In this document: positions 34,666 through 55,476 of the stretch, piece after piece
How positions within the stretch are numbered: position 1 is the first letter of the stretch
Layout: each line of letters opens with the position of its first letter
From: Candidatus Aminicenantes bacterium
GTDB taxonomy: Bacteria; Acidobacteriota; Aminicenantia; Aminicenantales; JAFGBC01
Length of the DNA stretch: 64,000 bases
Direction: 5' to 3'
Assembly: GCA_963702005.1 (NCBI GenBank)
Contig: OY969696.1
Span: 3,552,001 to 3,616,000 of the forward strand
The notes under the pieces: model-generated
What the model saw: the letters and a program-made list of their open reading frames with translations, nothing else
The model's database searches: none
Told to the model about the DNA's origin: nothing
Program-made: the position numbers and the translations under genes

Positions 34666-34694
34666 GGCTTTTCTCCTTTCCCGCGCCGAGAGGC

Positions 34695-36890: not shown

Positions 36891-38093
36891 ATGAACGCTA
36901 AAATCCGAATCCTCCCCGTCCTCATTCTATTCTCGGCGGCGGCCTGCGCGCTCCTCGCCCCGGCCTGCCGCCCCGCGGAGAAGCCGGCCGCGCCGGCGGA
37001 CGAAGCCGTCTATCGTCAAAAACCCGGCGCGCCCGACGAGACGATTTTATCCATGGACTTCGCCCGGATCTCGAAGCCCGGCGGCCTCGAAGAGTTCAAG
37101 CCCCTCTACCACACCCCGCCCGTCCAGCAGGGCAACACCTCAACCTGCTGGTCATTCGCCACGACCTCGCTCTTCGAGACCGAGCTCAAGCGCCTCTACG
37201 GGCTCGAGGTCAAGCTGTCCGAGATGCACACGGCATACTGGGAGTTCGTCGAGAAGGCGCGCCGCTTCATCCGCGAAAAAGGAAACTCGGCCCTCAGGGA
37301 AGGCTCCGAGCCCAACGCCGTCATCCTGCGGATGAAACAGTACGGCGCGGTACGCGAGTCCGATTATACAGGGCTCGTGGGCGGCGCAACCGCCTACGAC
37401 CACGACAGCCTCCACAAGGAACTCTGGGCTTGTCTTGAAGGATTCAAGGCCAGGAACGACTGGGACGAGGCCAAAGCCCTGGCCTCGGTCCGCGTCATCC
37501 TGGATAAGCACATGGGGCCTCCGCCCGAGACGATCGAGTTCGACGGCCGCCGCCTGACTCCCAAGGAATACCTTGATCAGGTCCTTAAGCTCCCCCTCGA
37601 CGATTACGTCGCCTTCACAAGCTTCAAATACACCCCCTTCTACAAGAAGGGCGAATATCGAGTCCCCGACAACTGGTGGCACAGCCAGGATTACTATAAC
37701 GTTCCGCTCGGCGAATTCTACGGCGCCCTGACCGGCGCCCTGGCCAAGGGCTTCACGGTCGCCCTGGCCGGCGACATCTCCGAGGCCGGCAACTACGGCC
37801 CCGAGGACATCGCCGTCATCCCGAGCTTCGACATCCCGCGGGAATTCATCAACCAGGACGCGCGCGAGTTCCGGTTCGCGAACAAGACCTCGACCGACGA
37901 CCACGTCCTCCATCTCATCGGGATATCCAAGCGGCCCGATGGCGACTGGTTCCTCCTCAAGGATTCCTGGCAGACGGCTTGGCAGGGCCGGTTCAAAGGC
38001 TATTTTTTCTACAGAGACGACTACGTGAAGCTCAAGATGCTGACCTTCCTCGTCCATAAGGACGCCGTCGCCGACCTCCTCGCCAAGTTCTAA
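36891..38093 (+). CDS. C1 family cysteine aminopeptidase, lipoprotein
   Basis: QGNTSTCWSF (catalytic Cys), TDDH (His), KDSW; lipobox-like LAPAC. Confidence 0.85.
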   Translation: MNAKIRILPVLILFSAAACALLAPACRPAEKPAAPADEAVYRQKPGAPDETILSMDFARISKPGGLEEFKPLYHTPPVQQGNTSTCWSFATTSLFETELKRLYGLEVKLSEMHTAYWEFVEKARRFIREKGNSALREGSEPNAVILRMKQYGAVRESDYTGLVGGATAYDHDSLHKELWACLEGFKARNDWDEAKALASVRVILDKHMGPPPETIEFDGRRLTPKEYLDQVLKLPLDDYVAFTSFKYTPFYKKGEYRVPDNWWHSQDYYNVPLGEFYGALTGALAKGFTVALAGDISEAGNYGPEDIAVIPSFDIPREFINQDAREFRFANKTSTDDHVLHLIGISKRPDGDWFLLKDSWQTAWQGRFKGYFFYRDDYVKLKMLTFLVHKDAVADLLAKF

Positions 38094-38103
38094 GGAGACG
38101 TTC

Positions 38104-40812
38104 ATGAAACTACGTTTATCCATCCTATCCGCTCTTATCATCCTACTGGCCGTTTTCGCGGCGGCGCCCTCGCTCCGGGCCGAGGACAAGCCGGTCCTCA
38201 CCCCCTGGACCGCGGACGACCTCATCAACCAGGAATCGGTCGGGAATTTCGCGATTTCGCCCGACGGCGCCTGGGCCGTCTGGACGAAGAGCACGACCGA
38301 TAAAGACAAAGACGGACGGATCAGCCGCTTGTTCCTTTCCTCGCTCAAGGAGGAGGCCGAGCCCTTCCAGCTGACCCGGGGCGATTCGAGCGATTTCGCC
38401 CCCCGCTGGTCGCCCTCGGGCAAGTTCATCGGCTTCCTCTCGGCCCGCAAGGTCCCCGGCGATAAAAGCGAGGCCGAAGGGGCCCAGGTCTGGCTCCTCG
38501 ACCGCCGCGGCGGAGAGCCCTGGAAGCTGACCGGCCTCCCGATGGGCGTCAGCTCCTTCGAATGGCTCGACGAGAACCGCCTCCTCCTCGCGGCCCGCGA
38601 GTCCCAGACCCTGCTCGAGCTCGAACAGAAGGAGAAAAAGGACTCCAGCCAGGTCGTCGAGGACCAGGAGCACATGGCGCCCCAGCGGCTGTTCGTCTTC
38701 GACATCAAAGCGCGGAAGGCCGAGCGGATCACATCGAACTCGGACCAGATCACGAACATCGAGCTCTCCCGGGACAAAAAGCTCGTCCTGACCCGGAACG
38801 AGCAGAGCGTCCGCTACGGCGTCGACAAGAAAATCAAGCCCAAGTTCTATCTCGTAGAGCTCGAAACCCGGGCCTCAAGCGAGCTCTTCCCCGAGCGCGG
38901 CTTCAAGCCCTCCTCCTTCGCCTGGGCCTGGGACTCCAAGGGTTTCTACTTCACCCGGACCCAGACGAGCGATTATGAGAACGAGGGCCCCGGCGCCGAA
39001 ATCCTCTACTACTACGACCTCGCCGCCAAGTCCTACGCGGAGGTCCCGATCGACTGGGGCTGGGGGATGTCCTACGGCTTCCTCCCCCGCGAGGACGGGT
39101 TCATCGCCGCGCTCGCCAACGGGGCCCGCCCCAAATGGCGTCGTTACGTCAAGGCCGAAGACTCCTACTCCTACAAGGAGCTCGAAGGCAAGCATTATCC
39201 CAATATCTATGGCTTCGACCTTCAGGAGGAAGGGACGGCGGCCGTCTACAGTTATTCGACGGCCTCCCAGCCCGTCCAGTATTACGTCGCGACGCTGGAG
39301 GGACCCGTCCTCAAGGGCGAGCGTCTCCTCCTCGAGCCCAACGGCGGGTTCAAGGACAAGCCCAAGGCCAAGACCGAGGTCCTCAAGTGGAGCGGCGCGC
39401 TGGGCGAGGAGGTCGAGGGCGTCCTGTACTACCCGCACGACTACATCGAAGGAAAGCGCTATCCCCTCATGCTCTCCATCCACGGCGGCCCGACCGGCTG
39501 GGACTCCGACGCCTTCGACGAGAATTGGGCGAGCTACCCCAATCTGCTGGCCCAGAAGGGCTCGTTCGTCCTTCTCCCCAATTACCACGGCTCGGGCAAC
39601 TACGGCCAAGCCTGGGCTGAATCCATCAAGGGCCGCTACTACGAGCTCGAGCTCGAGGACATCACCAAGGGCATCGACGTCCTCATCCGGAAGGGCATGG
39701 TCGATCCCGACCGGCTCGGGACCATGGGCTGGTCGAACGGCGGCATCCTGACGATCGGGCTCAGCGTCTGGACCGACCGGTTCAAAGTCGCCGGCGTCGG
39801 CGCGGCCGACGTCAACTGGACGAGCGACTACGGCAACTGCGCCTTCGGCGTCAGCTTCGACAACTACTATTTCAAGGGGACGCCCTGGGACGAGATCGAG
39901 CACTACATCCTGAAGTCACCCCTGTTCCATCTCAAGAACATGAAAACCCCGACCATCATCTTCCACGGGTCCGAAGACACCAACGTCCCCTATGAGCAGG
40001 GTTGGGAGTACTACCGAGCCCTCCAGCAGATCGGCCTGGCGCCGGTCCGCTTCATCAGCTTCCCGGGCGAGCCTCACGGCCTGCGCCTCCTGACCCACCA
40101 GAAGCGCAAGGTCGAGGAAGAGCTGGCCTGGTTCGACCGCTACTTCTTCAAGACCGAAGCAGCCCGCAACGAAGCCCTCAAGAAAGGCTCGCCTCTCGAC
40201 CTCCAAATCAAAAAGGCGGGCTTCGCGCACGCCGGCTCGCGCTACGGCGTCACGATCAAAGGCACGCTCGCCCCCGAAACGGTCCTCAGCGAGGGGCTGA
40301 ACGTCGGCCGCTTCGAGGTCACCCGGGCCCAGTGGGCCTCCTTCGACGGAAGCTACCAGGTCGAGCCCGGGACGGATGATTACCCGGCGACCGGGATGAG
40401 CTTCGATCAGGCCCAAAAGTACATTAAATGGCTGAGCGGCCGGACCGGCTTGAAGTACAGGCTTCCCACCGCGGCCGAGGCCGAGAAGCTCGCAGGGAAG
40501 GGCGGCGCCGACAACACCCTGGACTGGTGGGCCGGCTACACCCTCAACCCGGACGATGCCCGCCTCCTCCTCGACAAGGTCAAGACGCTCAAGGGCGCGG
40601 CATCGCTCCTCGTTCCGGTCGATAAATTCGACCCGGCCGGCGACGAGATGATCTTCGGCTTAGGCGGCAACGCGGCCGAGTGGGCCGTCGACGACAAGGG
40701 AAACGGCCAAGCTGTCGGGGCCTGCGCCGTTGCGCCCAAAGATCCTCAGGCCAAAAAGACGCCGCCGCCCTCCGCCTACACGGGCCTCCGCGTCATCAAG
40801 GAGGGCAGATAG
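38104..40812 (+). CDS. S9 prolyl oligopeptidase family protein with C-terminal FGE-sulfatase-like domain
   Basis: Propeller region, HGGP, GWSNGG, D..V, EPH triad; C-terminal FEVTRAQW, YRLPT.AE, GNAAEW, GLR. Confidence 0.85.
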   Translation: MKLRLSILSALIILLAVFAAAPSLRAEDKPVLTPWTADDLINQESVGNFAISPDGAWAVWTKSTTDKDKDGRISRLFLSSLKEEAEPFQLTRGDSSDFAPRWSPSGKFIGFLSARKVPGDKSEAEGAQVWLLDRRGGEPWKLTGLPMGVSSFEWLDENRLLLAARESQTLLELEQKEKKDSSQVVEDQEHMAPQRLFVFDIKARKAERITSNSDQITNIELSRDKKLVLTRNEQSVRYGVDKKIKPKFYLVELETRASSELFPERGFKPSSFAWAWDSKGFYFTRTQTSDYENEGPGAEILYYYDLAAKSYAEVPIDWGWGMSYGFLPREDGFIAALANGARPKWRRYVKAEDSYSYKELEGKHYPNIYGFDLQEEGTAAVYSYSTASQPVQYYVATLEGPVLKGERLLLEPNGGFKDKPKAKTEVLKWSGALGEEVEGVLYYPHDYIEGKRYPLMLSIHGGPTGWDSDAFDENWASYPNLLAQKGSFVLLPNYHGSGNYGQAWAESIKGRYYELELEDITKGIDVLIRKGMVDPDRLGTMGWSNGGILTIGLSVWTDRFKVAGVGAADVNWTSDYGNCAFGVSFDNYYFKGTPWDEIEHYILKSPLFHLKNMKTPTIIFHGSEDTNVPYEQGWEYYRALQQIGLAPVRFISFPGEPHGLRLLTHQKRKVEEELAWFDRYFFKTEAARNEALKKGSPLDLQIKKAGFAHAGSRYGVTIKGTLAPETVLSEGLNVGRFEVTRAQWASFDGSYQVEPGTDDYPATGMSFDQAQKYIKWLSGRTGLKYRLPTAAEAEKLAGKGGADNTLDWWAGYTLNPDDARLLLDKVKTLKGAASLLVPVDKFDPAGDEMIFGLGGNAAEWAVDDKGNGQAVGACAVAPKDPQAKKTPPPSAYTGLRVIKEGR

Positions 40813-40818
40813 GGATCG

Positions 40819-42264
40819 ATGGCCAAGCTCCGCCCGGCCTTTAGGGACAAGGCCCTCTTCGTCCGGCTGTTCGGCGCCGACGTCTACGCCGTGGGCGGAT
40901 TCGTCCGCGACCTCGTGCGCGGGACGCCGACCGAGGAGGTCGACCTCCTCGTCGTCCGGCGCAGCCTCGGCCAAATCGTGCGCCGGATCTCCCCGCACGG
41001 CCGGGTCGACCTGGTCGGAAAAAGTTTCGGAATCATCAAGTTCACGGTCCAAGGCCGCACCTACGACCTGGCCCTCCCCCGCAAGGACGCCCCGCGCGGG
41101 ACGGGGGTGCGCGGCCACAAGGATATCGCCGCGACCTCGGACCCGGATCTGCCGATCGAAAAGGACCTCGAGCGGCGCGACTTCCGCTGCAACAGCATGG
41201 CCCTCCGCCTTTCGGACGGCGCGCTCGTCGATCCCTTCGGCGGCGTCAAGGACATCCGGGCTAAAATCATCCGCCTCACCAACCCGTCCGCCTTTCCCGA
41301 AGACCCGCTCCGCGTCCTGCGCACGGCCCGTTTCGCCTCGGTCCTCGGCTTCGCCGTCGACCCGGCCATTTATCCGACGGCCAAGGACATCGACCTGGCC
41401 GGGCTGAGCGTCGAGCGCATCAACGAGGAACTCTTCAAGATCCTCCTCAACTCGCCCAAGCCGTCGAAAGGGCTCGAGGAGCTGTTCAGGCTCGGCGTCC
41501 TGCGCCGGCTCTTCCCCGAGCTCTACGGCCTGACCCTGGCCCTCCAGGACTCCGTCTTCCACCCCGAGAAGGACGAGTACGGCCACCACACGGTCTGGCA
41601 GCACACCAAGCTGACCGTGGACCAGGCCAAGACGCTCGGCGACCTCTTCGGATTCGCGGCGCCCAAGAAGCTCGCCCTGCTGCTGGCCGCCCTCTACCAC
41701 GACGCCGGAAAGCCCGGCACGGCCCAGTGGGAATTCAAGCGGGGCCGGATGGTCATCATCAACTACGGCCACGACCTGGCTAGCGAGAAGACGGTCAAGA
41801 AAGCCTTTCAGCGTTTCCGGATTTTCTCCTGGAACGGCTACCCGCTCAGCAAGGTCGTGCCGCTCATCATCAAGGCCCATCACCGGGCCTCGGAGCTCTG
41901 GCAGAGCCGCGAGAGCGTCACCCGCAAGGCCTTCAGCCGTCTGGCCGCGGATGTCGGAGGCGAGATTGAGCTCGTCGTCGCCCTCGACGCGGCCGACCGG
42001 GCCGGCCGGCGCGAGCGGCTGGTTAAGGGCCTGGACCGCGAGGCCCGCTGGCTCCTCCGAAAATTCGAAGAGCTGCGCGTCTCGAAGGAGACGATCAAGC
42101 CCCTGATCATGGGCCGCGACCTCATCAAGCTCAAAGTCGCGCCCGGCCCGGGCATGGGAAAAATACTCAAGCGCCTTTACAAGCTCCAGCTCGACAGCCG
42201 GTTCGAGACGCGGGCCGAAGGGCTCAAGCTCGCCAAGAAGATCGTGGAAGGGAAACGGCTATGA
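40819..42264 (+). CDS. Class II CCA tRNA nucleotidyltransferase / poly(A) polymerase family with HD region
   Basis: VGGFVRD, DLERRDF..N, EDPLRVLR..RF, ERI.EE, H..HD.GK. Confidence 0.85.
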   Translation: MAKLRPAFRDKALFVRLFGADVYAVGGFVRDLVRGTPTEEVDLLVVRRSLGQIVRRISPHGRVDLVGKSFGIIKFTVQGRTYDLALPRKDAPRGTGVRGHKDIAATSDPDLPIEKDLERRDFRCNSMALRLSDGALVDPFGGVKDIRAKIIRLTNPSAFPEDPLRVLRTARFASVLGFAVDPAIYPTAKDIDLAGLSVERINEELFKILLNSPKPSKGLEELFRLGVLRRLFPELYGLTLALQDSVFHPEKDEYGHHTVWQHTKLTVDQAKTLGDLFGFAAPKKLALLLAALYHDAGKPGTAQWEFKRGRMVIINYGHDLASEKTVKKAFQRFRIFSWNGYPLSKVVPLIIKAHHRASELWQSRESVTRKAFSRLAADVGGEIELVVALDAADRAGRRERLVKGLDREARWLLRKFEELRVSKETIKPLIMGRDLIKLKVAPGPGMGKILKRLYKLQLDSRFETRAEGLKLAKKIVEGKRL

Positions 42265-43244
42265 GAGTCCTCGTCGCCGGCGGCGCCGGATTCATCGGAT
42301 CCCATACCGTGAGGGAGCTCTTGGAGCGCGGCGTCGAGGTCACGATCTTCGACGACTTTTCGACCGGGCGGCGCGAGCTCGTCCCCGGCGGCAAGGCCGT
42401 CGCCGTCGTCAAGGGCGACCTCATGGACAGGGAGGCGGTCCGGGCCGCCTTCCGAAAGCGCCGCTTCGACGCCGTCCTCCACTTCGCCTCCCTGATCCAG
42501 GTCGGGGAAAGCTACAAGGACCCGGCCAAATACTACACCCACAACCTCGACACGAGTCTCAACCTCCTTGACGCCATGCGCGAGTCGGGCGTCGGGAATT
42601 TCATCTTTTCGTCGAGCGCGGCCGTCTACGGCGTCCCCGAAACGATCCCCATTCCCGAGGACCATCCCCTGAAGCCGATCAATCCCTACGGCCGGACCAA
42701 GTTGTTCGTGGAGCGCATCCTCGAGGATTACGGGCGGGCCTACGGGCTCCGTTACGTTTCGCTCCGCTATTTCAACGCGGCCGGCGCGGACCCCGAGGGC
42801 CGGCTTGGCGAGATGCACGACCCGGAGACTCACCTCATCCCCAACATTTTCCTTCATTTATTGGGGAGGGCGCCGGCCCTCGAGGTTTTCGGGACGGACT
42901 TCCCGACGCCGGACGGAACGGCCGTCCGCGACTACATCCACGTCACGGACCTGGCTGTCGCCCACGTCCTCGCCCTCGAAAAGCTCATGGCGGGCGGCAA
43001 GAGCCTCGTCCTCAACCTGGGGACGAACCGGGGTTACTCGGTCCTCGAGGTCGTCCGCAAAGCCGAGGAGGTCACCGGCCGCAAGGTCTCGATCGAGAAG
43101 CGGCCGCGCCGCGAGGGGGATGTCGCGGTCCTGCTGGCATCGAAAGAGAAAGCCGAGCGCCTGCTGGGCTGGACGCTCAGGCTCTCGGACATTGAGACGA
43201 TCATCCGGACCGCCTGGCGCTGGCATCAAAAACAAAGGACCTGA
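42261..43244 (+). CDS. galE: UDP-glucose 4-epimerase
   Basis: GGAGFIGSH, FSSSAAVYG, PYGRTK, LRYFNAAGA, DGTAVRDYIHV. Confidence 0.93.
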   Translation: MRVLVAGGAGFIGSHTVRELLERGVEVTIFDDFSTGRRELVPGGKAVAVVKGDLMDREAVRAAFRKRRFDAVLHFASLIQVGESYKDPAKYYTHNLDTSLNLLDAMRESGVGNFIFSSSAAVYGVPETIPIPEDHPLKPINPYGRTKLFVERILEDYGRAYGLRYVSLRYFNAAGADPEGRLGEMHDPETHLIPNIFLHLLGRAPALEVFGTDFPTPDGTAVRDYIHVTDLAVAHVLALEKLMAGGKSLVLNLGTNRGYSVLEVVRKAEEVTGRKVSIEKRPRREGDVAVLLASKEKAERLLGWTLRLSDIETIIRTAWRWHQKQRT

Positions 43245-43274
43245 GTCGCTTCTAAGGATAATAAGGAGGTCAGC

Positions 43275-44210
43275 ATGAATCGCGGAATGAGACGCAGGGA
43301 TTTTTTGAAGACCGGTGCGGCGGCCGGGGCGGCCGCGCTCGTCGGCGGCTTCGCCGGGGCCCGCGGGGTGACGGGCCAGCCGAGCGCGCCGCCGGACCTG
43401 GCGGTCGTCAAGGGCGCGGATTATTTCGCCGCGACGCGTAAAGCCATCGATACCCTGGGCGGAATGAAGAAGTTCGTAACGCCCGGGGCCAAGGTCGGGC
43501 TTCTCATCAACGCCCCGCTCTGGTGGCGTCTGCCGGGGAGCCACACGAACGCCGACGTCGTCCTGGCCGCGCTCCTCGCCTGCCAGGAGGCAGGGGCCGG
43601 CTCCATTCAATACCTGACCGACCCCGCGCCCGACTTCTGGACCAAGACACCCCTTTCGGCGAAATACGCCGCCGAGATCGCCTCGGTCAAGAAATGCTCG
43701 AAAAACTTCATCGAAGTCCCCGTTCCCAAAGGGACGGTCCTCAAAAAGGCCAAGGTCGTGAAAGAGCTCCTGGACTGCGACGTTTTCATCGACCTCCCCA
43801 TCATCAAGAACCACGAGGGTGTCTCCATGTCCGGGAACCTCAAGAACATGATGGGGGCCAACACGGGCGACACCAATCAGTTCTTTCACACCGGGTCCGG
43901 AACCAAGGGATCGTACGGCGACATCCCCTTCATCTCCCAGTGCATCGCCGACCTCAACACGCTGCGCCGGCCGGTCCTGTGCATCGCGGACGCGACCGTT
44001 TTCCTGATGACAAACGGCCCCCAGGGACCGGGCGAGCTGCGAAAGGCGGATAAGGTCATCGCCGGGACCGATCGGGTCGCGGCGGACGCCTACGGCGCTG
44101 GCTGCCTAGACCTCAAATCCGCCGACGTCCCGATGATCAGGAAAGCCGCCGAGCTTGGTCTGGGCCGCTTGGACTTGGACAAGCTCGCCGTCAAGGAGAT
44201 CGCGCTCTAA
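43275..44210 (+). CDS. Tat-exported DUF362 protein
   Basis: RRDFLK twin-arginine signal; P..K.H, LKNMMG, GP.GPG, D.VA.D motifs. Confidence 0.8.
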   Translation: MNRGMRRRDFLKTGAAAGAAALVGGFAGARGVTGQPSAPPDLAVVKGADYFAATRKAIDTLGGMKKFVTPGAKVGLLINAPLWWRLPGSHTNADVVLAALLACQEAGAGSIQYLTDPAPDFWTKTPLSAKYAAEIASVKKCSKNFIEVPVPKGTVLKKAKVVKELLDCDVFIDLPIIKNHEGVSMSGNLKNMMGANTGDTNQFFHTGSGTKGSYGDIPFISQCIADLNTLRRPVLCIADATVFLMTNGPQGPGELRKADKVIAGTDRVAADAYGAGCLDLKSADVPMIRKAAELGLGRLDLDKLAVKEIAL

Positions 44211-44270
44211 ATCGGGTTGACATCCCCCGAACCGCCGGCATATATTGAGGTCGGCCAAAAGGAAATCACG

Positions 44271-46262
44271 ATGAAAAAGGGGTATCCGTCCGTCCGCAAA
44301 ATCGCGTTTTCGGCTTGTGCCGTCCTGATCGCGCTCGCTCTTCTGAGCCCGAATTTTGCTCCCGGCGGCGGACCGCTCGCGCCGCCCGCGGAATCGAGGA
44401 CGGTCATCGGGCCTTACGGCGGGGACATCCGGGGCTTAGCCGCCAACCCAACCAAGCCCAAAGAAGTTTATGCCGTTTCCTACTACCAAGGCCAAGTCTT
44501 CAAATCCTCTGATTCGGGGGCGTCCTGGAAGAATCTGGCCGCTTTCGATTGCGAGCTCTACGATATCGCCCTGGCTCCCTCCGATCCCAACCGTCTCTAC
44601 GTGCTCGGGCAGGAGGGCGTATCGGTTTCCGAGGACGCGGGCGCGACCTGGACGGCTCGGGCGTTCGGGACCCGCTGCTACAGCAAAGCCTCTTTGGCCG
44701 TCGACCCCAAGGATCCGGACACGATCTATGTCGCGGGCTTTTTCCAGACGGATCCGAACCGCTACTGGATCACCTCCGCGGCATTCTTCATCTCCCGGAA
44801 CGCCGGGAAGACCTGGACGACGACGAAGCTGACGCCTTCGGGCAGCTGGGGTTCGTTATCCTGCTTCGACGTGTCCCGGGATCACCCGGACGTCTTCTAT
44901 GTCGCCGGCGATTGGTGGGATACAAAGTATAAACACCATTATATCGTCTTCCGGAGCGGCAACCGCGGCAAGAGCTGGAAAAACATCTCGCCGCCTTCTC
45001 TCAATAAAATTCCGACCGCGCTGGCGGCTGATCGCGGCGATCCCGGCCGCCTTTTCCTGACCGCCGACAGGTACGTCTTGAGAAGCTCGAACGGCGGAGC
45101 GACCTGGACGTCGACGGATCTTAAAGAACCGCTGTCGGCTGTCGCCATCGATCCCGCCCATCCCTCCCTCGTCTACGCCGGGGGGAGCTCGCTGGGTTTC
45201 CGAAGCCCGGACGGCGGCCTCAATTGGACCCGGTTCACGGGGATCGGGGGAACGGTCAAGGATTTCCTGTTCGGCACCGGCCGGGTCCTGGCGGGGACTT
45301 CGGCGGGCGTCTTCAAGAGCGCCAACAACGGGCAATCCTGGAGCGCCAGCCACCAGAACCTCTGCGCCATGAATGTCGAGACCGTGCCGGTTTCGCCCTC
45401 TTCCCCCCAGGTCGTCTACGCGGCCCTGCCCGGGATCGGGCTGTCCCGGTCGGCAAACGGCGGGAAGTCCTGGGCCAGGCAGGGAACGTCTACGATCTGC
45501 GGCGGTATCGTCGACCTCGCCGTGCGCCCAGACAATCCGGATTGGTTCATCGCCTCCGTCATGGGCTGAGGCAACTCGGGCGTCTACAGGTCTGTAGACG
45601 GCGGTAAAAAAATGACTCGAGTGGCTGTCCTCTTCGCCTACGATCTGGCCTTCAGCGCGACCTCGCCCCAGGTCATTTTCGGGACCGGCTTCTCCAACGG
45701 GATCTCGTTCTTCATGTCCACGGACGGAGGGACCACCTGGGCGACGCGTTCGGTCGGAGTGCCGGGCGAGGGCCACACCCTGGCCCTGGATCCCCGGGAC
45801 GAGAATATCATCTATATCGGCGGACGGCACAGGCTCAATACCTCTACATTAACGTATGAGACGATCGTCTCCAAGAGCCTGAACGCCGGCCAAAAGTGGA
45901 CCCACATCACGGGGAAGGTCGGCGGAACGATCATTCGCGCGCTCGCGATCGATCCCGGGACGCCGAACCGGATCTTGGCCGGCTCCGACGCCGGTATTTA
46001 TCGGAGCGAGGACGGCGGGGCGAATTGGACGCAGGCTCTGTCCGCAGATATCTACTGCATGAAAATCATAGCCTCGACGCCCAAGGCGGCCTACGCCGGG
46101 GGGCCGGCCGGGCTTTACATCAGCCTGGATGCCGGCAAGACCTGGACGGAATCCGTCGAAGGGATGACGGTCAAATACGTCCAGTGTCTTGACGCGGACA
46201 AAGCCCAAAAGACGATTTATGTTGGAACTTACGGAGGGAGTATCCTTAAGATCCGGCGCTGA
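44271..46262 (+). CDS. Secreted BNR/Asp-box beta-propeller protein with in-frame TGA (45567-45569), predicted selenoprotein, paralogue 1 (663 aa, Sec433)
   Basis: ORFs 44271-45569 and 45612-46262 are in frame; the linker reads *GNSGVYRSVDGGKKM, an Asp-box-like motif; SECIS-like hairpin 11 nt after the TGA. Confidence 0.8.
45581..45600 (+). promoter_or_regulatory. Bacterial SECIS-like hairpin
   Basis: CGTCTACA-GGTC-TGTAGACG, 11 nt downstream of the TGA; CAGGUCUG apex as in the E. coli fdhF SECIS. Confidence 0.8.
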
Positions 46263-46377
46263 TGATTCAAGGTCCCGGCTAAAGTCCCCGTTTGGCTCCG
46301 GCCCGTTGACAATATGCGGCAATCTTTGTTAAAGTTCGTAGCAGTTCACAGGTTCCCATGAAACGGGGGATTCTTCC

Positions 46378-48360
46378 ATGAATAAAAAGATGTTTTTACT
46401 TTGCGGCGTCTGGGCCTGCCTCGGTTTCATCGGACTGGGCGCGGTTTCCGACGACCCGCCTTTCTCTCCGCCCGCGGAATCGAGGACGGTCATCGGCCCT
46501 TACGGCGGGGATATCCGGGGCTTGGACGCCAACCCGGCCAACCCTAAGGAAATCTACGCCGTCTCCTACAACAGGGGGCAGGTCTTCCGTTCCACGAATT
46601 CCGGCGAAACCTGGACAAGCATCGCCGCCTTTGATTACGAGCTCTTCGATGTCGCCGCGGCTCCCTCCAACCCGAACGTCATCTATGCCCTGGGCAAAGA
46701 GAGAATTTTCAAGTCCAGCGACAAAGGGGCGACCTGGAAGGAGTACGAGTTCGGCACGCGGAGGTACGCCACAGGGCATATCATCATCCATGCCAAGGAC
46801 CCAAACGAGGTCTACGTCGCCGGCTACTTCCAGACGGACCCAAATCGAGGGGAGGCCACCTGCCCGGCCTTCCTTAAATCCCAAACCGGCGGGAAAACCT
46901 GGACGGTGACGAAAGTCAGCACGAATTCCCTCTCCGGCTCAATGACCTGCCTCGCCCTGTCCAAGAAGCATCCCGCCGTTTTCTATGCCGGCACGACATG
47001 GCGGAATGCCTTCTATAAATACTATTATGGGTTTTGTCGGAGCGACGACGGCGGCCAGAGCTGGAAGGACATCTCGCCCGCCCTGGACGGCGCCGCGTGT
47101 GATGCGGCGGTCGATCCCGACGATCCCACCCGCGTCTTCCTGGCCGCTAGTACGACCATCTGGCGCAGTGAGAACGGCGGATCGAGCTGGGCGACGACAA
47201 AACTCCAGCCTTTAACGGCTTTGGGCATGAATCCCGCCCTCCCCCAAGTCCTCTATGCCGGAGGCTCCGGGCTGATCTACAGGAGCCTGGACGGAGGGCT
47301 CCACTGGACCCAGCCCCAGGCGTGCGGCGGTTCGGCCCAGGACTTTCTGTTCGGGTCCAGCCGGGTCCTAGCGGCTACTTCAAACGGCATTTTTAGGAGC
47401 GACAACAGCGGATCATCCTGGAAGGCCAGCCATCAGGGCTTGAGCGCCATGAACATCACGACCCTGGCCGCCGCCCCTTCCTCCTCCCAGGTCCTCTACA
47501 CAGCCGTCAGCGGCTGCGGATTGTACAGATCCGGCAACGGAGGAAAAACCTGGTTGAGGACGGGGACGGGGTCGCCCTGCGATAATATTATAAGTCTCGC
47601 CGTGTGCCCGGAAAATCCCGATTGGCTCTTCGCGACCGCCTCCGGTTGAAGCAATTATGGCGTCTACAGTTCTGTAGACGGCGGAAAGAAGATGCAGCGT
47701 CTGTCGAGTATTCTCGTCTATGCCCTGACCATCAGCCCAAAATCATCTCAAGTCATTTACGGACTGGGCTATGGGATTAAATTCTATAAGAGCTCGGACG
47801 GAGGGAAGTCCTGGGTAACCCGCGTTCTCGGAAACCAGACGTACCAAAACGCCTTGGCTCTTGATCCCGAGAATGAAAACATCATCTATATTGGCGGTTT
47901 CCACTGGACAGCATCCCTTGCGGCGCGACGAAAGGGGCGCGACCGATCCGGGTGGACGGCGGTTGTCTTTAAGAGCACGAATGGCGGACAGGCCTGGAGC
48001 GGAATCACCGGGAAGATCAAAGGGACCCGGCTTTATGCGCTCGCGGTCGATCCCAAGACGCCGTCCCGGGTTTTCGCCGGAACCGATCTCGGCCTCTACA
48101 GAAGCGAAAACTCCGGCGCGAGTTGGACCGAAGTCCTCAAGGCCGATATCAATAGCGTGAAGGTCATTTCCTCCAATCCGAAAGCCGTCTACGCCGGCGG
48201 CCCTTCGGGCCTTTATCTCAGCCTGGACAGCGGCAAGACCTGGACGAAATCCGTCGAAGGGATGACGTCCAAATACGTCCAGTGTCTTGACGCGGACAAG
48301 GCCCAGAAGACGATTTACGTTGGAACTTACGGAGGGAGTATCCTCAAGATCCGGCGCTGA
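46378..48360 (+). CDS. Secreted BNR/Asp-box beta-propeller protein with in-frame TGA (47647-47649), predicted selenoprotein, paralogue 2 (660 aa, Sec424)
   Basis: ORFs 46378-47649 and 47692-48360 are in frame; the linker reads *SNYGVYSSVDGGKKM; same TGA position and hairpin as paralogue 1. Confidence 0.8.
47661..47680 (+). promoter_or_regulatory. Bacterial SECIS-like hairpin
   Basis: CGTCTACA-GTTC-TGTAGACG, 11 nt downstream of the TGA; stem identical to paralogue 1. Confidence 0.78.
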
Positions 48361-48441
48361 CGATTTCCCGTCTTCCTATTGTCGAAACGGAACAAGGATG
48401 GCATAATACCCCTCCGGTTCATTTTGCCGAGAGAGAAAGGC

Positions 48442-50256
48442 ATGCGAAAGAACTATCTCCGTATCTTCCTGCCGATGATCCTTCTTGTTCTGGCCTTCCT
48501 CGGGAGCTGTTCTCATAAGAAAGGCGCCGTAAAGACCGAGCCCAATTGGAAGCCGACTCAAGCCCAAAAAGCCGAGGACGCGGCCAAAAAACAAGCCCAG
48601 CCCGGCGCGCCCGCCGTCGAGCCTCGAACCCAGGCTCCGGCGATCGCGACGCCGCCCCCCGTCGCCGAGGAACCCGCTCCCCAAGCCAAGGAGTCCGAGG
48701 AGCCCGAGAAGGACGCCTCCGCGCTCCTCGAAGACGCCCTGAGCACCTTCCAGGACGCCCAGGCGGCTTGGGAGAGGGGCGAGTCCGACCAGGCCCTATC
48801 CCTCCTCGACGAAACTTACGGCCTCATTCTCAAGGCCAAGGTCCCGGCCGATTCTCCGCTCGTCCAGGACAAGAACGACCTCAGGCGGCTGGTCGCTCAA
48901 AAAATCCAGCAAATTTACGCCTCCAAGCCGGCCTCGGTCGGCGACAACCACCGGACGATTCCGCTCGACGAAAACAAGTACGTCCTTCAGGAGATTCAAT
49001 CCTTCCAGACACGGGAGCGGAAGCCGTTCGAGGACGCCTTTCGGGTGAGCGGCCTCTTCCGGCCCATGATCCTCGAGGAGCTCCGCAAGGAGGGCATGCC
49101 CGAGGAGCTCTCCTGGCTGCCCATGATCGAAAGCTGGTTCAAGATCCGGGCCCTGTCGCGGGCCCGGGCCCTCGGGCTGTGGCAGTTCATCCACTCGACC
49201 GGATACCGGTTCGGCCTCAAGCAGGACCGCTGGGTCGACGAGCGGATGGACCCGCTCAAAGCGACCCGGGCCGCCGTCAAGTACCTCGGCGAGCTCCATT
49301 CCTATTTCGGCGACTGGACGACGGCCCTGGCCGCCTATAACTGCGGCGAGATCCGCGTCCAAAGCGTCATCCGGGCCCAGCGGATCGACTACCTCGACAA
49401 CTTCTGGGACCTCTACCTCCAGCTGCCGCTCGAGACGGCCCGCTTCGTGCCGCGGTTGATCGCTTGCCTCCTCATCATCAACGACCCCGCCAAGTACGGG
49501 TTCAACCTTCCGCCGCCCGATCCGGCCCTCCGCTACGATACGGTCACCATCCGCCAGGCCGTCAAGCTCTCCTCCCTCGCCCAGGACCTGGGGCTCGAGC
49601 CGTCCACCCTCGCCTTCTACAATCCCGAGCTCCGCTTCGACGGTACGCCCGAGTACGATTACGACATCAAGGTCCCGCCCGGATACGGCGAAAAGGTCTC
49701 GGCCGCCGTCCGAGCGCTCCCCCGCTGGATCCCGCCCGAGGCGACCTTTTTCGTCCACTACGTCCGGAGCGGCGATACGGTGGGCTCGATCGCCCGAAAA
49801 TACCGGACGACGGTCGCGGCCATCGCCCGTCTCAACAACATGCGGCGGGTGGGCATGATCTGGCCCGGCCAACGCCTCAAGATTCCGGGCAGGGGCGTAC
49901 CGATCGAGGCCCCATCCGAAAGCGCCCCGGCGGCCAAACCCGGCGAGAAAACGACCTACGTTGTCCGAAGCGGGGACGCCCTCGACCAGCTGGCCCTCGT
50001 CTTCGCGACCACGGCCGGGCAAATCAAGGCCGACAACAGCCTCCAGGGCGACAGCCTGGCCGCCGGGCAGGCGCTCCTGATCGTCAATAACCGGAGCAAA
50101 GGGCCCCTCCGCCACACGGTCGTCGGAGGAGAAACCCTTTTCTCCATCTCGAAGCTCTACGGAATGGACCTCGACGAGTTTTTAAGCATCAACAAACTCA
50201 GCCCGGATTCCATCATCTACGCCGGCCAAGAACTCTGGGTCACGCCGACGAAGTAG
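48442..50256 (+). CDS. MltD-like lytic murein transglycosylase lipoprotein with three LysM domains
   Basis: Lipobox FLGSC, IES, GLWQF, ALAAYNCGE, ET..FVP, three LysM repeats. Confidence 0.88.
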   Translation: MRKNYLRIFLPMILLVLAFLGSCSHKKGAVKTEPNWKPTQAQKAEDAAKKQAQPGAPAVEPRTQAPAIATPPPVAEEPAPQAKESEEPEKDASALLEDALSTFQDAQAAWERGESDQALSLLDETYGLILKAKVPADSPLVQDKNDLRRLVAQKIQQIYASKPASVGDNHRTIPLDENKYVLQEIQSFQTRERKPFEDAFRVSGLFRPMILEELRKEGMPEELSWLPMIESWFKIRALSRARALGLWQFIHSTGYRFGLKQDRWVDERMDPLKATRAAVKYLGELHSYFGDWTTALAAYNCGEIRVQSVIRAQRIDYLDNFWDLYLQLPLETARFVPRLIACLLIINDPAKYGFNLPPPDPALRYDTVTIRQAVKLSSLAQDLGLEPSTLAFYNPELRFDGTPEYDYDIKVPPGYGEKVSAAVRALPRWIPPEATFFVHYVRSGDTVGSIARKYRTTVAAIARLNNMRRVGMIWPGQRLKIPGRGVPIEAPSESAPAAKPGEKTTYVVRSGDALDQLALVFATTAGQIKADNSLQGDSLAAGQALLIVNNRSKGPLRHTVVGGETLFSISKLYGMDLDEFLSINKLSPDSIIYAGQELWVTPTK

Positions 50257-50265
50257 GCGCCCCTC

Positions 50266-51783
50266 GTGGACGTTTATCTCATCAACGTCCGCTCCCCTCG
50301 GGCCGAGGCCGAGCAAACCTCGGCGGTCATGTTCCAGAAGGTCCTGGGCCGGCGCCTTTCGCCCTCCGAGCCTTTGGGTCTGGCCGTACTAGCGGCCTGC
50401 ACGCCGGCGGGGATTCATCTTCGCGCCGTGGACGAGAACGTCGCCGACGTGGACCTGGAAGCCAGGCCCGACCTAGTCGGCCTTTCCTTCCATACGCCCT
50501 GCGCGCCCCGAGCCTATGAGCTGGCGGCTCACTTCCGGTCGCGTTCGATCCCCGTCGTCATGGGCGGCCCCCATGTCTCGCTGCTCCCCGACGAAGCGCG
50601 GCTCCATGCCGACCACATCGTCACCGGCGAAGCCGAACGGGCTTGGCCGGCGTTCCTGAACGATTTTCGATCCGGACGGGCGAAGCCGTCCTATGCCGGA
50701 AGCCCGTGTCCCGGTGAATCCATGCCGTTGGCCCGCTGGGACATTTATCCGCGGGACGCCTACCTCGCCCGCACGCTCCAAGCCAGCCGCGGCTGTCCCA
50801 ACAACTGCGACTTCTGCGCCAACATCAGGTTGAGCGACCGCCGGCTCCGCCTCCGCCCTCCGGACAATGTCATCCGCGAGATGTCGACGCGGCTGGAAAG
50901 TCCAGGCCGCAGGATTTTCTTCATCGTCGACAACGATCTCTTCGCCGACACCGACTGGAGTATGGCTCTGGTCGATCGGATCAAGGACCTCGGGGTCGAC
51001 TGGTGGGGATTCGCCTCGGTCAAGGCGGGCTCCCATCCGGAGCTGCTCAAGCGCATGGCCCAAAGCGGCTGCCGCTATCTCATCGTGGGCTTCGAGTCCC
51101 TGAGCGAGGACAGCCTCAAGGCCGTCCACAAGCCCGGCAACCTTCCCGACCTCTACACCCGTACAGTCCGGACCATCCAAGACCGGGGGATCGCGGTCCA
51201 TGCCTCGTTCGTCCTCGGCCTGGACGGGGACGGGCCCGATATTTTCGAACGGACGGCCCGCTTCGCGGAAAGCCAGGGCATCCTCATCGCCAACATCAAC
51301 GTCGCGACGCCCTACCCGGGGACGGAACTCCACCGGCGGCTGGACCGGCAGGGCCGCCTCCTCCATCGCAACTGGGAACTCTATGACCGGACCCACGTCT
51401 GCTTCAAGCCGGCCAAGATGTCGGTCGAGGAGCTGGCCGAAGGCTACCGGGCGCTCTCGATCGCCATCAACGGCCGGTCTCCATCCTGGAGGCGGCTCCG
51501 CTCCTTCCTGGCCTCCGCGCCGGCCGATCCGCCGATCCGTTCTATGACGGCATCGGGCGGGCCGAAGCTCAAAACGCTCCGCCGCGTCCCGCGCTTCCTC
51601 CGCCGCACGAGTCCGGCCGATTGGGCCTTCTATATCCGGCTGCTGACCGCTCGGCGCCTCGGACCGCCGTCAAGACGCCTCTTCTACGCCACGGCCGGAT
51701 ATTTGATGAAGAGGGATTTCGTCCGGTATCTCAAAGGACGAACTGAGCCCGGCGGGTCAAGACCGAATACCCCGCAGGGCTAA
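50266..51783 (+). CDS. Cobalamin-binding-domain radical SAM protein
   Basis: PLGL, VVMGGPH, GEAE, SRGCPNNCDFC, GFES, TPYPGT. Confidence 0.85.
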   Translation: MDVYLINVRSPRAEAEQTSAVMFQKVLGRRLSPSEPLGLAVLAACTPAGIHLRAVDENVADVDLEARPDLVGLSFHTPCAPRAYELAAHFRSRSIPVVMGGPHVSLLPDEARLHADHIVTGEAERAWPAFLNDFRSGRAKPSYAGSPCPGESMPLARWDIYPRDAYLARTLQASRGCPNNCDFCANIRLSDRRLRLRPPDNVIREMSTRLESPGRRIFFIVDNDLFADTDWSMALVDRIKDLGVDWWGFASVKAGSHPELLKRMAQSGCRYLIVGFESLSEDSLKAVHKPGNLPDLYTRTVRTIQDRGIAVHASFVLGLDGDGPDIFERTARFAESQGILIANINVATPYPGTELHRRLDRQGRLLHRNWELYDRTHVCFKPAKMSVEELAEGYRALSIAINGRSPSWRRLRSFLASAPADPPIRSMTASGGPKLKTLRRVPRFLRRTSPADWAFYIRLLTARRLGPPSRRLFYATAGYLMKRDFVRYLKGRTEPGGSRPNTPQG

Positions 51784-53870
51784 AGACATCCACCCTCAGG
51801 CCGTCGCAGCCTGCCGGTCGACCACCGCCTTCGAAAGCCATCCGGACTTCGTCCCCGGGCGCAAGATCGGGCAAGGCTTGCAGTTTCTGGACGAGCGGGA
51901 TCTTTCCCCTCCCCGACCACAGCCAGCGAAGTGAGTAGCCGGACAACTTATGGGCGGGGGCGGTGCCTCGGGTTTTGACGACCACGAGCGCCCCGCCTCC
52001 GGCTTCTTCGATCCTCATCTCCTCGATCGGGCTGGATTCCGCACGGAGGACCTCGAAAGAAGGCTTCCGGTTGCCGAAGAGGTCCACGACGCCGTGAACC
52101 CGCTGCTTAAGGATGCCGAGGCCTTTATCGCCGATGTGGGTTCGGTAGTCGTTATAGCAGAAGAAAATGAAGCCTCCCACCCAGGGATAATCGCGGAAAA
52201 CGCCGTTGTGTTCGCGGAGGATCCTGATCCGCGGCTCGTCGCCCTCGGGCCGGTCCTCGGTGCAGGCGCAGAAGCCGTACTCGCTGATTACGACCGGCTT
52301 CTCGGGAAACGCGCGGTGGATGGCCTCGAGACTTCGTCTCATGTCGGCGGCCGTCCCCCCGTACCACGTTTCGTAGTACTCGTTCCACTCGATGAAATCC
52401 ATATCGCCGGCGACGTCCCGTTCCGGCGTATAGTGGAGGGAATTCGAAGCATAGGAACAAAGACGGTCGGGATCGAGCCGCTTGGCCTCGTGGAGCATCG
52501 CGCGGACGAATTCTTGGGCGGCCGGATTCTGCCCGCCGACTTCGTTGCAGAGCCCCCAGGAGAATACGGAGGGGATGGTTCCGGTCCTGCCCGATCATCT
52601 CCCGGAGCTGCTCGAGCCCGTTCTCCATGATCGCGGCCGAGGGCTTTCCCTCCATGCCTTTGAAAGTGTCGGACCCCCAGGTCGGAACCTCGACCTGGAT
52701 CAGGATCCCCTTCCGGTCGCATTCGTCGAGGACGCGCCGGTCCTGCTGCCAGTGGACGCGGGTGAAGACGCAGTTCAGCTCCTTGAGGTCGCCATGATCG
52801 TGGGCGATCCAGGAGGAGGGCTCGGCCATGCCGTAAGCCGGGTGGCTCCCGGCCATCCGCTCGACGCCGGCCAGCCGGACCGGCTCGCCGTTAAGGAGGA
52901 ATTCCGTGCCGCGGACTTGGATCCGGCGGATGCCGAAGGTCGAGGATAGCCGGTCGCCACCTTTCCCTTTCGAGGTGATCCAGGCCTCGAGGACATAGAG
53001 GTGGGGATGGTCGAAATGCCAGAGCCTGGGCCGGTCGAGGACCGCCTCTGGAAGGCCAACCTCCCGGACGGCTCCGGCCGGGACGGACTCTCCGCGGGCG
53101 GATGGGTTTTCCAGGACGGTCCGCCCCGAAGACTCCTCGAGGACGCGGACGCCGATCTCGACCTTGGAGTTCTTCGGCGAGGCGTTCCGGATGACGGCCG
53201 TGATCCTTAGGGAGGCCGTGTTCCTTTCGAGGTCGGGTTGAGCCTCGACCCATAGGTTCTCCAAATAAACCGCGGGCGTCAGGATGAGGCTGACCGGCCT
53301 GGTGATGCCGCCGTCCGGGGTCCAGTCGTAGGAGTTGCTCCGGGGCAGCAGGCCCGGCGAGAAAGCGTTGTCGACGCGGACGGCGATCGTGTTCGGCTTG
53401 CCGAGTTCGAGCAGGGACGTGATGTCAAGAGCGAAGGCCGTGTATCCCTTGCCGATGTGCTCCCCGGCTTTCCTGCCGTTGACCCAGACCTGGGCCGTGT
53501 GGAAGACGGCTTCGAATTCGATCCGGACGACCAAGCCGGCCCAAGACGGAGGCGCGTCAAATTCCTTGCGGTACCAGGCCCTTCCCAGATAGTCGGCCGT
53601 CCGCTCCGAGATCTGCCAGGTGTGCGGGACTTCGACATCCTCCCATCCCTTGCCGGGAACGCCCGCTCCATGCCAGCCCCACTTCTCCCCCTGATCCTCG
53701 CGATCAATCCGGAAATGCCATGTCCCCGACAAAGAGATGGTCCGGCGGAGGCCGCTTCCATCTTGCCCGCTCTGCAATCCCGACGAACAGGAAGCGCTCA
53801 GCACGGCCGTTCCGGCCGCGGCGGCCTTTACGCTTCCCTCCAGAAATTCCCGGCGCGTCCAACGTCCCAT
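51731..53870 (-). pseudogene. Tat-exported GH2 beta-galactosidase/glucuronidase with a single frameshift at about 52571-52574
   Basis: RREFL Tat signal; GH2 domains; removing one G from the G4 run restores RNHPSVFSWGLCNE and joins to the ISEYG nucleophile segment. Confidence 0.8.
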
Positions 53871-53992: not shown

Positions 53993-54172
53993 ATGAAGCG
54001 AATGCCCAAGGCCGTGAAAATATTTAAAAGCTTTAAGGAACAGGAGGCTTGGGACATCCAGTATTATATCAACCTGAGTCCCGAAGAGCGTCAGCGTATC
54101 GCCCGAGAGCTCCGCGAAAGATTTTATGGGACAAATCCTTCGCGAATCCGGGAGGTTCACGACGCCAAATGA
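53993..54172 (+). CDS. Small 59-aa protein (MKRMPKAVKIF...LSPEERQRIARELR...), translationally coupled to the nucleotidyltransferase
   Basis: Read manually; ATGA overlap with the next gene. Confidence 0.65.
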   Translation: MKRMPKAVKIFKSFKEQEAWDIQYYINLSPEERQRIARELRERFYGTNPSRIREVHDAK

Positions 54173-54666
54173 CCCTAACCTATTTTTCGCAGGATATCCA
54201 GGACCTCCTCTCTCTCCTCTTCAAGCACAAGGTCCGTTATCTCATCGTCGGGGCGGAAGCTGTGATCTATCACGGCTTCGCCAGGCTCACCGGCGATATC
54301 GACATCTTTTTCGAATCCTCTCCGAAAAATTGCCGGACCATGTTTTCCGCTCTCCGGGAATTTTGGGCCGGTCCGGTGCCGGGGATAGGATCTCCCGCCG
54401 AGCTCGCGACCAAGGGGACGATCATCCAATTCGGCTATCCGCCGAACCGCATCGACTTGATCAATACGATTTCCGGTGTCGATTTTCCCGAAGCCTGGAA
54501 GGACAGGTCTTCCCAGAGCTTACTCGTCCGGAAGCAACACGTCACCGTGCACTACATCGGCCTCTCCGCCCTGATCAAGAACAAGGAAGCCTGTGGGCGG
54601 CCCAAGGACCTGGAGGATCTTAAGTATCTCCGGGAAGCGGCAAAAAAGGCCGGCCACAAAACGTAA
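54169..54666 (+). CDS. Nucleotidyltransferase (DUF6036-like)
   Basis: YLIVGAEAV..HG..R.T.DID and NK...GR.KD..D motifs. Confidence 0.75.
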   Translation: MTLTYFSQDIQDLLSLLFKHKVRYLIVGAEAVIYHGFARLTGDIDIFFESSPKNCRTMFSALREFWAGPVPGIGSPAELATKGTIIQFGYPPNRIDLINTISGVDFPEAWKDRSSQSLLVRKQHVTVHYIGLSALIKNKEACGRPKDLEDLKYLREAAKKAGHKT

Positions 54667-54697
54667 AAAAAGCCCGCCGCATCGGCGAAGAGGTCTT

Positions 54698-54900
54698 TGT
54701 CTGGCCCTTGCCGTCCGTCTTCGTCTTCAGCAGGCTGTCGAAATAATAGGTATAGCTCGAGGTCGCGCCCGAGGGATGGTGAACGGTCGTGAGTCGTTTG
54801 AGATTGTCGTACTCGTAGCTCGTGGAGTTGAGGTTCGCGTCCAAGACCTGGATGAGCTTCCCCTTGTCGTAGTCGAACTGGGACACCTTGCCCTCGGCAT
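54698..54900 (-). pseudogene. RHS/YD-repeat fragment
   Basis: YDKGKLIQVLDANLNSTSYEYD...KTDGKGQT, near-identical to segments around 56040-56250 and 58887-59041. Confidence 0.8.
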
Positions 54901-54987
54901 TAACTGGATATGATTTTCAATTTTGCACTTTCAACCTGACGATGGTAATATATTAAGGGATTTTAAAAATCCTGGAGAGGCAATCCC

Positions 54988-55212
54988 ATGAAAGACCTCA
55001 AGATAGTGGTGGAAAAGCATCCTGATGGGTATGTAGCCTATCCCCTTGGCCTAAAGGGCGTAATCATCGGACAGGGCGAAACCTACGAATCTGCGCTGGC
55101 TGACGTGAAGTCCGCGATCCAGTTCCATCTAGAGAGCTTTGGCCCTGAGGCGCTGGAGATAGATCCCTCGATTCTGGAAGTCTTCATTGCGGAGACCCAA
55201 GTAAGGGGATGA
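54988..55212 (+). CDS. hicB: HicB-family antitoxin (short form)
   Basis: GYVA..PLGL.G...QGETYESAL..VKSAI. Confidence 0.8.
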   Translation: MKDLKIVVEKHPDGYVAYPLGLKGVIIGQGETYESALADVKSAIQFHLESFGPEALEIDPSILEVFIAETQVRG

Positions 55213-55448: not shown

Positions 55449-55476
55449 TGTAAGAGACATCAAGAAGGATGACAGG

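Follow-up and report, generated by a model that had tools for sequence, protein, structure and literature searches.

Tandem beta-propeller genes with a shared in-frame UGA and a SECIS-like hairpin in Candidatus Aminicenantes: candidate exported selenoproteins

The 64,000-nucleotide stretch of contig OY969696.1 from a Candidatus Aminicenantes bacterium that was analysed here (the window) carries two tandem paralogous genes on its + strand, at 44271–48360. The two are 55% identical and comprise 663 and 660 codons when read through the one in-frame TGA that interrupts each of them. The best explanation of this arrangement, and probably the right one although it is not proven, is that each gene encodes a single exported protein of ~660 residues, with selenocysteine (Sec) inserted at the internal UGA. 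The evidence comprises coding constraint that continues past the UGA, a conserved hairpin downstream that resembles a bacterial Sec insertion sequence (SECIS) and a predicted propeller blade that spans the UGA. A preliminary description of this DNA had proposed Sec-containing extracellular proteins of about 660 aa; the single read-through gene in that proposal is borne out by the coding signature and the predicted fold, whereas Sec as the inserted residue is a probable reading and not an established one. The genes and their interrupting codons are located as follows.

44271..46262, + strand: paralogue 1; 663 codons plus stop with the internal TGA read through, a signal-peptide-like N-terminus and 13 Asp-box blades.
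46378..48360, + strand: paralogue 2; 660 codons plus a TGA stop, with the internal TGA read through.
45567..45569, + strand: in-frame TGA of paralogue 1, the proposed Sec codon (codon 433).
47647..47649, + strand: in-frame TGA of paralogue 2, the proposed Sec codon (codon 424).

Under translation table 11 each gene is called as two open reading frames (ORFs), at 44217/44271–45569 and 45612–46262 for paralogue 1 and at 46378–47649 and 47692–48360 for paralogue 2. Both halves of each gene lie in a common frame and are split by one TGA, then 42 nt and then an ATG; the 3′ end of paralogue 1 reads TGA TGA. The halves had been described as in frame across a 42-nt gap with the TGA at an equivalent residue, and these coordinates proved exact, both TGAs falling in the same alignment column. 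The 14 gap codons translate as GNSGVYRSVDGGKK in paralogue 1 and SNYGVYSSVDGGKK in paralogue 2. In our own reading of the translations, these peptides appear to form a beta-strand followed by an Asp-box and to resemble the other 12 blades, in agreement with the Asp-box-like motif noticed previously. Signal peptides were judged by eye only.

TGA terminates 17 of the 43 other long ORFs in the window (11 of them with Pfam matches), and it also ends both propeller genes. A genetic code in which TGA is a sense codon is thereby excluded, and the two internal TGAs therefore need a local explanation. No other convincing TGA-interrupted gene was found in the window, where the remaining same-frame ORF pairs are ordinary neighbouring genes.

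Comparison of the two paralogues, by synonymous divergence (dS) and the ratio of non-synonymous to synonymous divergence (dN/dS), gave the following values.

Upstream of the TGA: dS 0.81, dN/dS 0.44.
The 14-codon gap: dS 0.91, dN/dS 0.11, with 5 synonymous and 3 non-synonymous changes.
Downstream of the gap: dS 1.24, dN/dS 0.33.
The last ~45 codons: dS 0.18, dN/dS 0.27.

Six of the eight base changes in the gap are at codon position 3. Neither gene has an in-frame ATG, GTG or TTG between the TGA and the conserved ATG, so the gap can be translated only via read-through of the TGA. Coding constraint, as judged from these substitutions, persists 3′ of the TGA and indicates that the downstream DNA is translated; the pattern supports a single gene of some 660 codons for each ORF pair, with read-through at the TGA. 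Over their last ~45 codons (46125–46262 and 48223–48360) the genes are near-identical, forming a gene-conversion tract at the 3′ ends.

The immediate neighbours of the TGA differ between the genes (GGC-TGA-GGC in paralogue 1, GGT-TGA-AGC in paralogue 2), which indicates that the common TGA is older than the divergence of the paralogues and was not spread by recent conversion. This bears on whether the genes are decaying pseudogenes, inactivated by a nonsense mutation that both copies carry. A close relative with 86–89% nucleotide identity in the flanking genes keeps only a degraded mosaic of the locus, as decay would predict. Against this, the TGA column is common to both copies despite a dS of about 0.8–1.2, the downstream half has a dN/dS of 0.33 rather than near 1, and neither gene contains any other stop or frameshift in its ~1990 nt. 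On the dN/dS pattern a pseudogene is ruled out and two independent proteins are unlikely; with the degraded relative also taken into account, decay is very unlikely. A sequencing or assembly error as the source of the TGA is barely credible. Nothing specific speaks for it, beyond the related record being a metagenome-assembled genome (MAG) and the possibility that the window likewise comes from assembly, whereas random error cannot account for an identical codon at this site in two diverged paralogues that both carry a conserved hairpin.

The read-through proteins match Pfam Sortilin-Vps10 with 115.8 bits (paralogue 1) and 133.7 bits (paralogue 2), against a gathering threshold of 33. Further matches are to PSII_BNR and BNR, and 13 Asp-boxes are readable in paralogue 1. 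The NCBIfam model NF045728 (‘F510_1955 family glycosylhydrolase’) is matched with 201.3 and 218.9 bits at a cutoff of 175, each score being a sum over 5 stretches of a 246-position model, so that membership applies only to repeats or domains. The alignment of the two sequences was used to build an AlphaFold model (predicted local distance difference test score, pLDDT, 76.7; predicted template modelling score 0.64), which shows successive four-strand blades. In a Foldseek search of the PDB, the best matches to this model were all GH74 xyloglucanases (E 5e-28; template modelling score 0.71, most 0.69–0.73; ~17% identity). Furthermore, a profile of ten family members matches GH74 (2cn3) at E 1.9e-44; a PDB sequence search with paralogue 1 alone gave just 3 weak matches. 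The read-through protein is thus predicted to be a GH74-like tandem seven-bladed propeller.

GH74 xyloglucanases (PDB 6mgl, 2cn2, 1sqj) are likewise tandem seven-bladed BNR/Asp-box propellers. The window proteins differ from them in being ~70–100 residues shorter and in having an in-frame UGA in the blade adjoining that with the second catalytic Asp. Chains 2cn2 and 2cn3 differ by Asp versus Ala at profile column 64, which is the N-domain catalytic Asp. The GDIGG motif, which we take to be the site of the C-domain catalytic Asp of GH74, falls at profile column 355. The window proteins have Tyr72 and Asn65 at column 64 and Gly388 and Gly379 at column 355 in this low-identity profile alignment. 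On the aligned sequences both GH74 catalytic Asp residues are lost; the proteins are therefore not filed as GH74 enzymes, although they appear to share the fold. Cys373 of paralogue 2 (47494–47496), in an SGCG loop of blade 8, adjoins the column of the second GH74 catalytic Asp; it is not conserved, the corresponding residues of paralogue 1 being PGIG.

The NF045728 and Sortilin-Vps10/BNR proteins of Acidobacteriota have the same Pfam set and a similar length (619–696 aa). They differ from the window genes in being called as uninterrupted ORFs, and none is described as a selenoprotein in the sources searched. When the N-terminal ORF was compared with the ESM Atlas, 7 of 10 among the matches listed were proteins of 619–696 aa with no interruption, mostly from Acidobacteriota; these are family-level leads obtained from the two table 11 ORFs, with no alignment. 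No ESM Atlas cluster of ~430 aa or ~216 aa stood out as a sign of many TGA-split relatives.

In the model, the TGA falls between strands 426–431 (B) and 437–441 (C) of blade 9, and is followed by the Asp-box and by strand 449–452. Termination at the TGA would split this blade of the second propeller, which favours one polypeptide. The alternative most directly concerned is termination at the UGA followed by restart at the conserved ATG 42 nt on, which would yield a 432-aa exported piece and a 216-aa piece, with the hairpin modulating their coupling. The codons in question, and the promoter-like sites of the full genes, are as follows.

45612..45614, + strand: conserved in-frame ATG of paralogue 1 (Met448), a table 11 ORF start at an Asp-box position.
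47692..47694, + strand: conserved in-frame ATG of paralogue 2 (Met439), the counterpart of 45612.
44217..44246, + strand: promoter-like site 5′ of paralogue 1 (TTGACA, 18 nt, TATATT; 11/12; consensus match only).
46306..46335, + strand: promoter-like site 5′ of paralogue 2 (TTGACA, 18 nt, TAAAGT; 10/12; consensus match only).

In both paralogues the Asp-box of blade 9 has Met, encoded by this ATG, at a position that is Trp in the other 12 blades and in 7 of 8 distant relatives; the conserved ATG speaks for restart, as do the two ORFs called under table 11. Yet the 14 gap codons show a coding pattern and encode strand C and an Asp-box, which would be pointless if they were untranslated, and blade 9 would lose a strand. 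The second piece would also be without a signal peptide (by eye) even though its partner would be exported. No clear Shine–Dalgarno sequence precedes the ATG, whereas well-defined starts in the window have GGAG-like sites. By consensus matching, the internal ATGs at 45612 and 47692 have no promoter-like site upstream, unlike both full genes. Restart is consequently rated as quite unlikely.

Downstream of each internal TGA lies a hairpin that is held in common by the two genes.

45581..45600, + strand: SECIS-like hairpin of paralogue 1; perfect 8-bp stem, loop GGTC, beginning 11 nt after the TGA, with the loop 19 nt after it.
47661..47680, + strand: SECIS-like hairpin of paralogue 2; identical 8-bp stem, loop GTTC, beginning 11 nt after the TGA.

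The preliminary description of this stem, its position and its two loops was exact to the base. That description had also reported diverged DNA around the hairpin and uncommon TCT and GTA codons within it, and both reports hold. The 11-nt spacer differs at 5 positions between the paralogues and the loop at 1; GTA accounts for 2.9% of Val codons and TCT for 3.2% of Ser codons in 25 window genes. Recent gene conversion was considered as a source of the identity of the hairpins and was rejected, as spacer and loop differ and the converted tail has a dS of 0.18. In each paralogue the TCT and GTA codons are adjacent, within the 3′ arm of the stem. Where the residue is identical and at least one copy uses a rare codon (35 columns), the codon itself is preserved in only 5: 2 are the TCT and GTA of the stem, 2 lie in the converted tail and 1 is elsewhere.

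The 28-nt window holding the hairpin has 9 base pairs common to both genes, the most among 1818 aligned windows of that length. The hairpin is the only stable fold with a structure common to the two genes; one window of lower energy has 0 common pairs. In its 60-nt context the fold of paralogue 1 has a z of −3.49, with 1 of 200 shuffles as stable, and the hairpin energy is −9.6 kcal/mol. On its + strand the window contains 24 perfect 8-bp hairpins with loops of 3–8 nt, whereas 20 shuffles gave 11 on average. The occurrence of two of them each 11 nt past the only two interrupting TGAs is not chance placement. Taken as a comparison of two gene copies, these results support conservation of the hairpin as RNA beyond codon requirements.

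The hairpins were compared with the SECIS element of fdhF from Escherichia coli K-12 MG1655, where, as the preliminary description had stated, the minimal hairpin begins 11 nt after the TGA and has an apex containing CAGGTCTG, as in paralogue 1. In both systems, an in-frame UGA lies in a coding region and the hairpin follows within the ORF at this distance. The apical loop is of 4 nt in each case, and the 8-nt apex CAGGUCUG of fdhF is the same in paralogue 1. The loop starts 18 nt after the TGA in fdhF and 19 nt after it in both window genes. The host protein differs, being a predicted secreted beta-propeller and not an oxidoreductase. In the available parts of two sources, bacterial SECIS elements are described as having 16–37 nt from UGA to apical loop (PMC10778597) and a small apical loop with G (PMC1088965); the window hairpins have 19 nt to the loop, and their GGUC and GUUC loops both contain G.

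It is proposed that a ribosome arriving at the UGA (codon 433 in paralogue 1, codon 424 in paralogue 2) would meet the 8-bp hairpin with its GGUC or GUUC tetraloop 11 nt on, and that this hairpin would act as a bacterial SECIS, holding SelB and Sec-tRNA(Sec) at the A site. Strand C of blade 9 and its Asp-box would be translated next, and synthesis would continue up to the true stop, which is also UGA and has no hairpin after it. The N-terminal signal peptide would export the protein, which would fold as two seven-bladed GH74-type BNR propellers.

Read-through independent of selenium would require instead that a near-cognate or suppressor tRNA inserts Trp, Cys or another residue, with the hairpin serving as a stimulator or being an unrelated RNA element. 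The coding evidence fits such read-through equally well, the Rfam SECIS models give no match, and Sec machinery is not evident within the window. However, the hairpin has the spacing, loop size and 8-nt apex of a proven SelB-binding element, and Trp occurs at the recoded column in none of the 8 distant relatives in the profile alignment. We know of no established bacterial mechanism for hairpin-stimulated UGA read-through other than SECIS, and this is counted against the selenium-independent reading, which is judged unlikely. As for the machinery, ARAGORN found 0 tRNAs in the 64 kb window, hence no tRNA-Sec there. No Pfam match to selA, selB or selD occurs among 41 window proteins (39 ORFs and the two read-through proteins), a result that neither supports nor refutes Sec.

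A further alternative is translational bypass, for which phage T4 gene 60 provides a precedent. The ribosome would take off at the Gly codon (GGC or GGT) before the UGA and land on a GGC after the hairpin, skipping ~33 nt. A Gly codon before the stop, a stable hairpin after it and a matching GGC just past the hairpin are indeed found in both genes. But purifying selection acts in frame on the segment that would be skipped, the strand and Asp-box expected there are encoded in it, and skipping would take a strand from blade 9. Bypass is regarded as extremely unlikely.

Decoding of the UGA as Sec has in turn to be weighed against several observations that do not favour it. Two are differences from fdhF: the window stem is a perfect 8 bp with no bulge, a bulged U being a feature of the fdhF element, and the loop of paralogue 2 is GUUC, with U replacing the second loop G of fdhF and paralogue 1. 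The fold statistics are also mixed. The 28-nt local fold ranks only 8th in paralogue 1 and 4th in paralogue 2 within its own gene, the 60-nt fold of paralogue 2 is unremarkable (z −1.16, matched by 30 of 200 shuffles), and other local folds in these GC-rich genes are stronger than the hairpin. The stems are identical in both copies, so that there is no compensatory change to prove pairing. Nor does the Sec reading account for the conserved ATG that replaces the Asp-box Trp; this ATG might be selectively neutral or provide a fail-safe for restart.

Rfam SECIS_2 and SECIS_3 gave no match at E ≤ 10 across 44000–48600, the scan returning only four chance-level matches, none of them SECIS. At gathering score, 0 Rfam matches were found in the whole window. 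As a positive control, both models detect E. coli fdhF, SECIS_2 at 87.1 bits and SECIS_3 at 35.8 bits. These models, of 55–59 positions, probably include formate-dehydrogenase coding context, and the miss is therefore read as ‘not that family’ rather than ‘not a SECIS’, though it still counts as a negative.

Among the relatives compared, all distant at the recoded column (20–28% identity), no clear Sec/Cys pair is seen. A scan of genome contigs for related loci returned 3 loci from 55 pattern matches. The first, L001, is a contig of a Ca. Aminicenantes MAG that is syntenic with window 37477–50262 at 86–89% nucleotide identity in flanking genes. Its propeller locus, at 9940–10804, is a mosaic of ~0.8 kb with pieces of paralogue 2 in three frames. 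Paralogue 1 and the Sec region are missing, and the DUF362 gene is separated from the remnant by ~2.3 kb of other sequence. Either the genes are dispensable and have decayed there, or repeats were collapsed in the assembly. The other two loci, L002 (from an Acidobacteriota MAG) and L003, are 21–28% identical to the window proteins. A tblastn search of plasmids gave 47 records, all below 60% identity (best 27.9%); of six plasmid-borne relatives retrieved, five entered the alignment, where they were informative for the GH74 columns but too distant for comparing Sec with Cys.

At the recoded column, the 8 distant relatives (20–28% identity) show N, S, T or a gap in the profile alignment. Cys is at the exact column in 0 of 8 by this alignment and in 1 of 3 by a MAFFT alignment (20–28% identity). 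The one case is the second gene of L003, whose Cys is at the column in the MAFFT alignment and 2 residues off in the profile alignment. The recoded residue is at profile column 400, in the blade following that with the second GH74 catalytic Asp, and is next to a conserved Asp (QQDN) of four plasmid-borne ‘glycosyl hydrolase’ relatives. Its local context is G-U-G in paralogue 1 or G-U-S in paralogue 2, with no CxxU-type motif nearby.

In the proposed proteins, Sec would lie on the usual ligand face of propellers, in the B–C loop of blade 9 (the C-terminal propeller's second blade). An invariant Cys is encoded upstream.

45498..45500, + strand: Cys410 codon of paralogue 1; invariant column, 23 residues before codon 433 and 2 residues before strand A of blade 9.
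47578..47580, + strand: Cys401 codon of paralogue 2; the counterpart of Cys410.

By blade topology, the B–C loop and Cys410/Cys401 would be at the same end of neighbouring antiparallel strands, making a Cys–Sec pair plausible; this nearness is an inference from topology, and residues 406–410 have a pLDDT <50. Sec and the Cys 23 residues upstream could make a selenenylsulfide redox site or a metal-binding site. A bolder proposal, tentative and rather doubtful, is that the genes represent a new selenoprotein family, built on a secreted GH74-like double propeller without its two catalytic Asp residues, in which a ligand-face-loop Sec and the upstream Cys form a new extracellular site, either a selenenylsulfide redox centre or a metal-/chalcogen-binding one, with the ATG perhaps providing a selenium-dependent switch between full-length and two-fragment products. 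On this proposal, selenium chemistry would have been added extracellularly to the scaffold of a carbohydrate enzyme, in a lineage that is Aminicenantes-like and uncultured.

Most known prokaryotic selenoprotein families are redox enzymes. The literature searched contained no selenoprotein combined with BNR, Asp-box or beta-propeller, in agreement with the preliminary description, which knew of no BNR-propeller selenoprotein family. More than 110 prokaryotic selenoprotein families are counted in the available portion of a 2026 review (PMC13188914), the main text of which, to the extent available, names no propeller, BNR, sortilin, WD40, Ycf48 or NF045728 family; its supplementary lists may hold more. 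The accessible sections of the deep-Sep paper report nine new families, none a propeller, and a test set that includes the Acidobacteriota genome Occallatibacter riparius with 3 selenoprotein genes (PMC12013277); here too the supplementary lists may hold more. Similarly, the main text of the BSepDB paper has no propeller/BNR-type family, and its supplementary lists may hold more. Literature on Aminicenantes and selenium, judged mainly by titles, gave no sign of Sec use.

A likeness can be drawn with the FCYXU-type TonB-dependent receptor, which, in the available parts of the sources, is also a predicted envelope or exported selenoprotein outside thioredoxin-fold oxidoreductases and was also found via an in-frame TGA and a SECIS-like hairpin (PMC12013277, PMC13188914). 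It differs in having TGA- and Cys-homologues in several genomes and a CxxU motif, as compared with two paralogues in one genome here. With the window genes, the selenoprotein families would gain a secreted GH74-like propeller that is catalytically ‘orphan’, through a known kind of recoding and not a new mechanism. If true, this would extend Sec use to a class of structures, and to a location in the cell, for which there are hardly any examples, and would give a handle on Sec usage in the uncultured Aminicenantes-like bacteria. There is also a lesson for annotation: gene callers split such genes into two ORFs, so that similar genes may hide in metagenomes as fragments.

Among the neighbouring genes, a B12-binding radical SAM gene (50266–51780) lies two genes downstream and ends in TAA. 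It matches the model of a CUAEP/CCAEP-tail radical SAM (seleno)protein at E 3e-7 with 29 bits, against a cutoff of 500, which looks like generic radical SAM similarity.

Elsewhere in the window, an IS200-type Y1 transposase ORF (25568–26008, − strand; Y1_Tnp E 5e-40) is flanked by repeated GC-rich hairpins with perfect stems, five in all, at 25353, 25431, 25543, 26051 and 26104 (region 25341–26123). These may form a REP/RAYT-like repeat family; L001 18194–18370 matches window 25478–25341 at 71%. Two stretches, 31877–35361 and 54593–60593, have a third-position GC of 0.30–0.63 compared with ~0.8 elsewhere, and may be horizontally acquired DNA. Most of their ORFs are without a Pfam match, save an RHS-repeat ORF (57155–58774), and a DUF6036 nucleotidyltransferase ORF (54049–54663) is just 5′ of the second stretch.

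Glycan-degrading genes are numerous at 724–15750 and 52155–53870; their products include a six-hairpin protein resembling glutaminase A, DUF2961, GH2 and an MGH1-like/GH63-like protein with PA14. Such genes suggest that the organism is saccharolytic, which is consistent with secreted propellers acting on or binding glycans.

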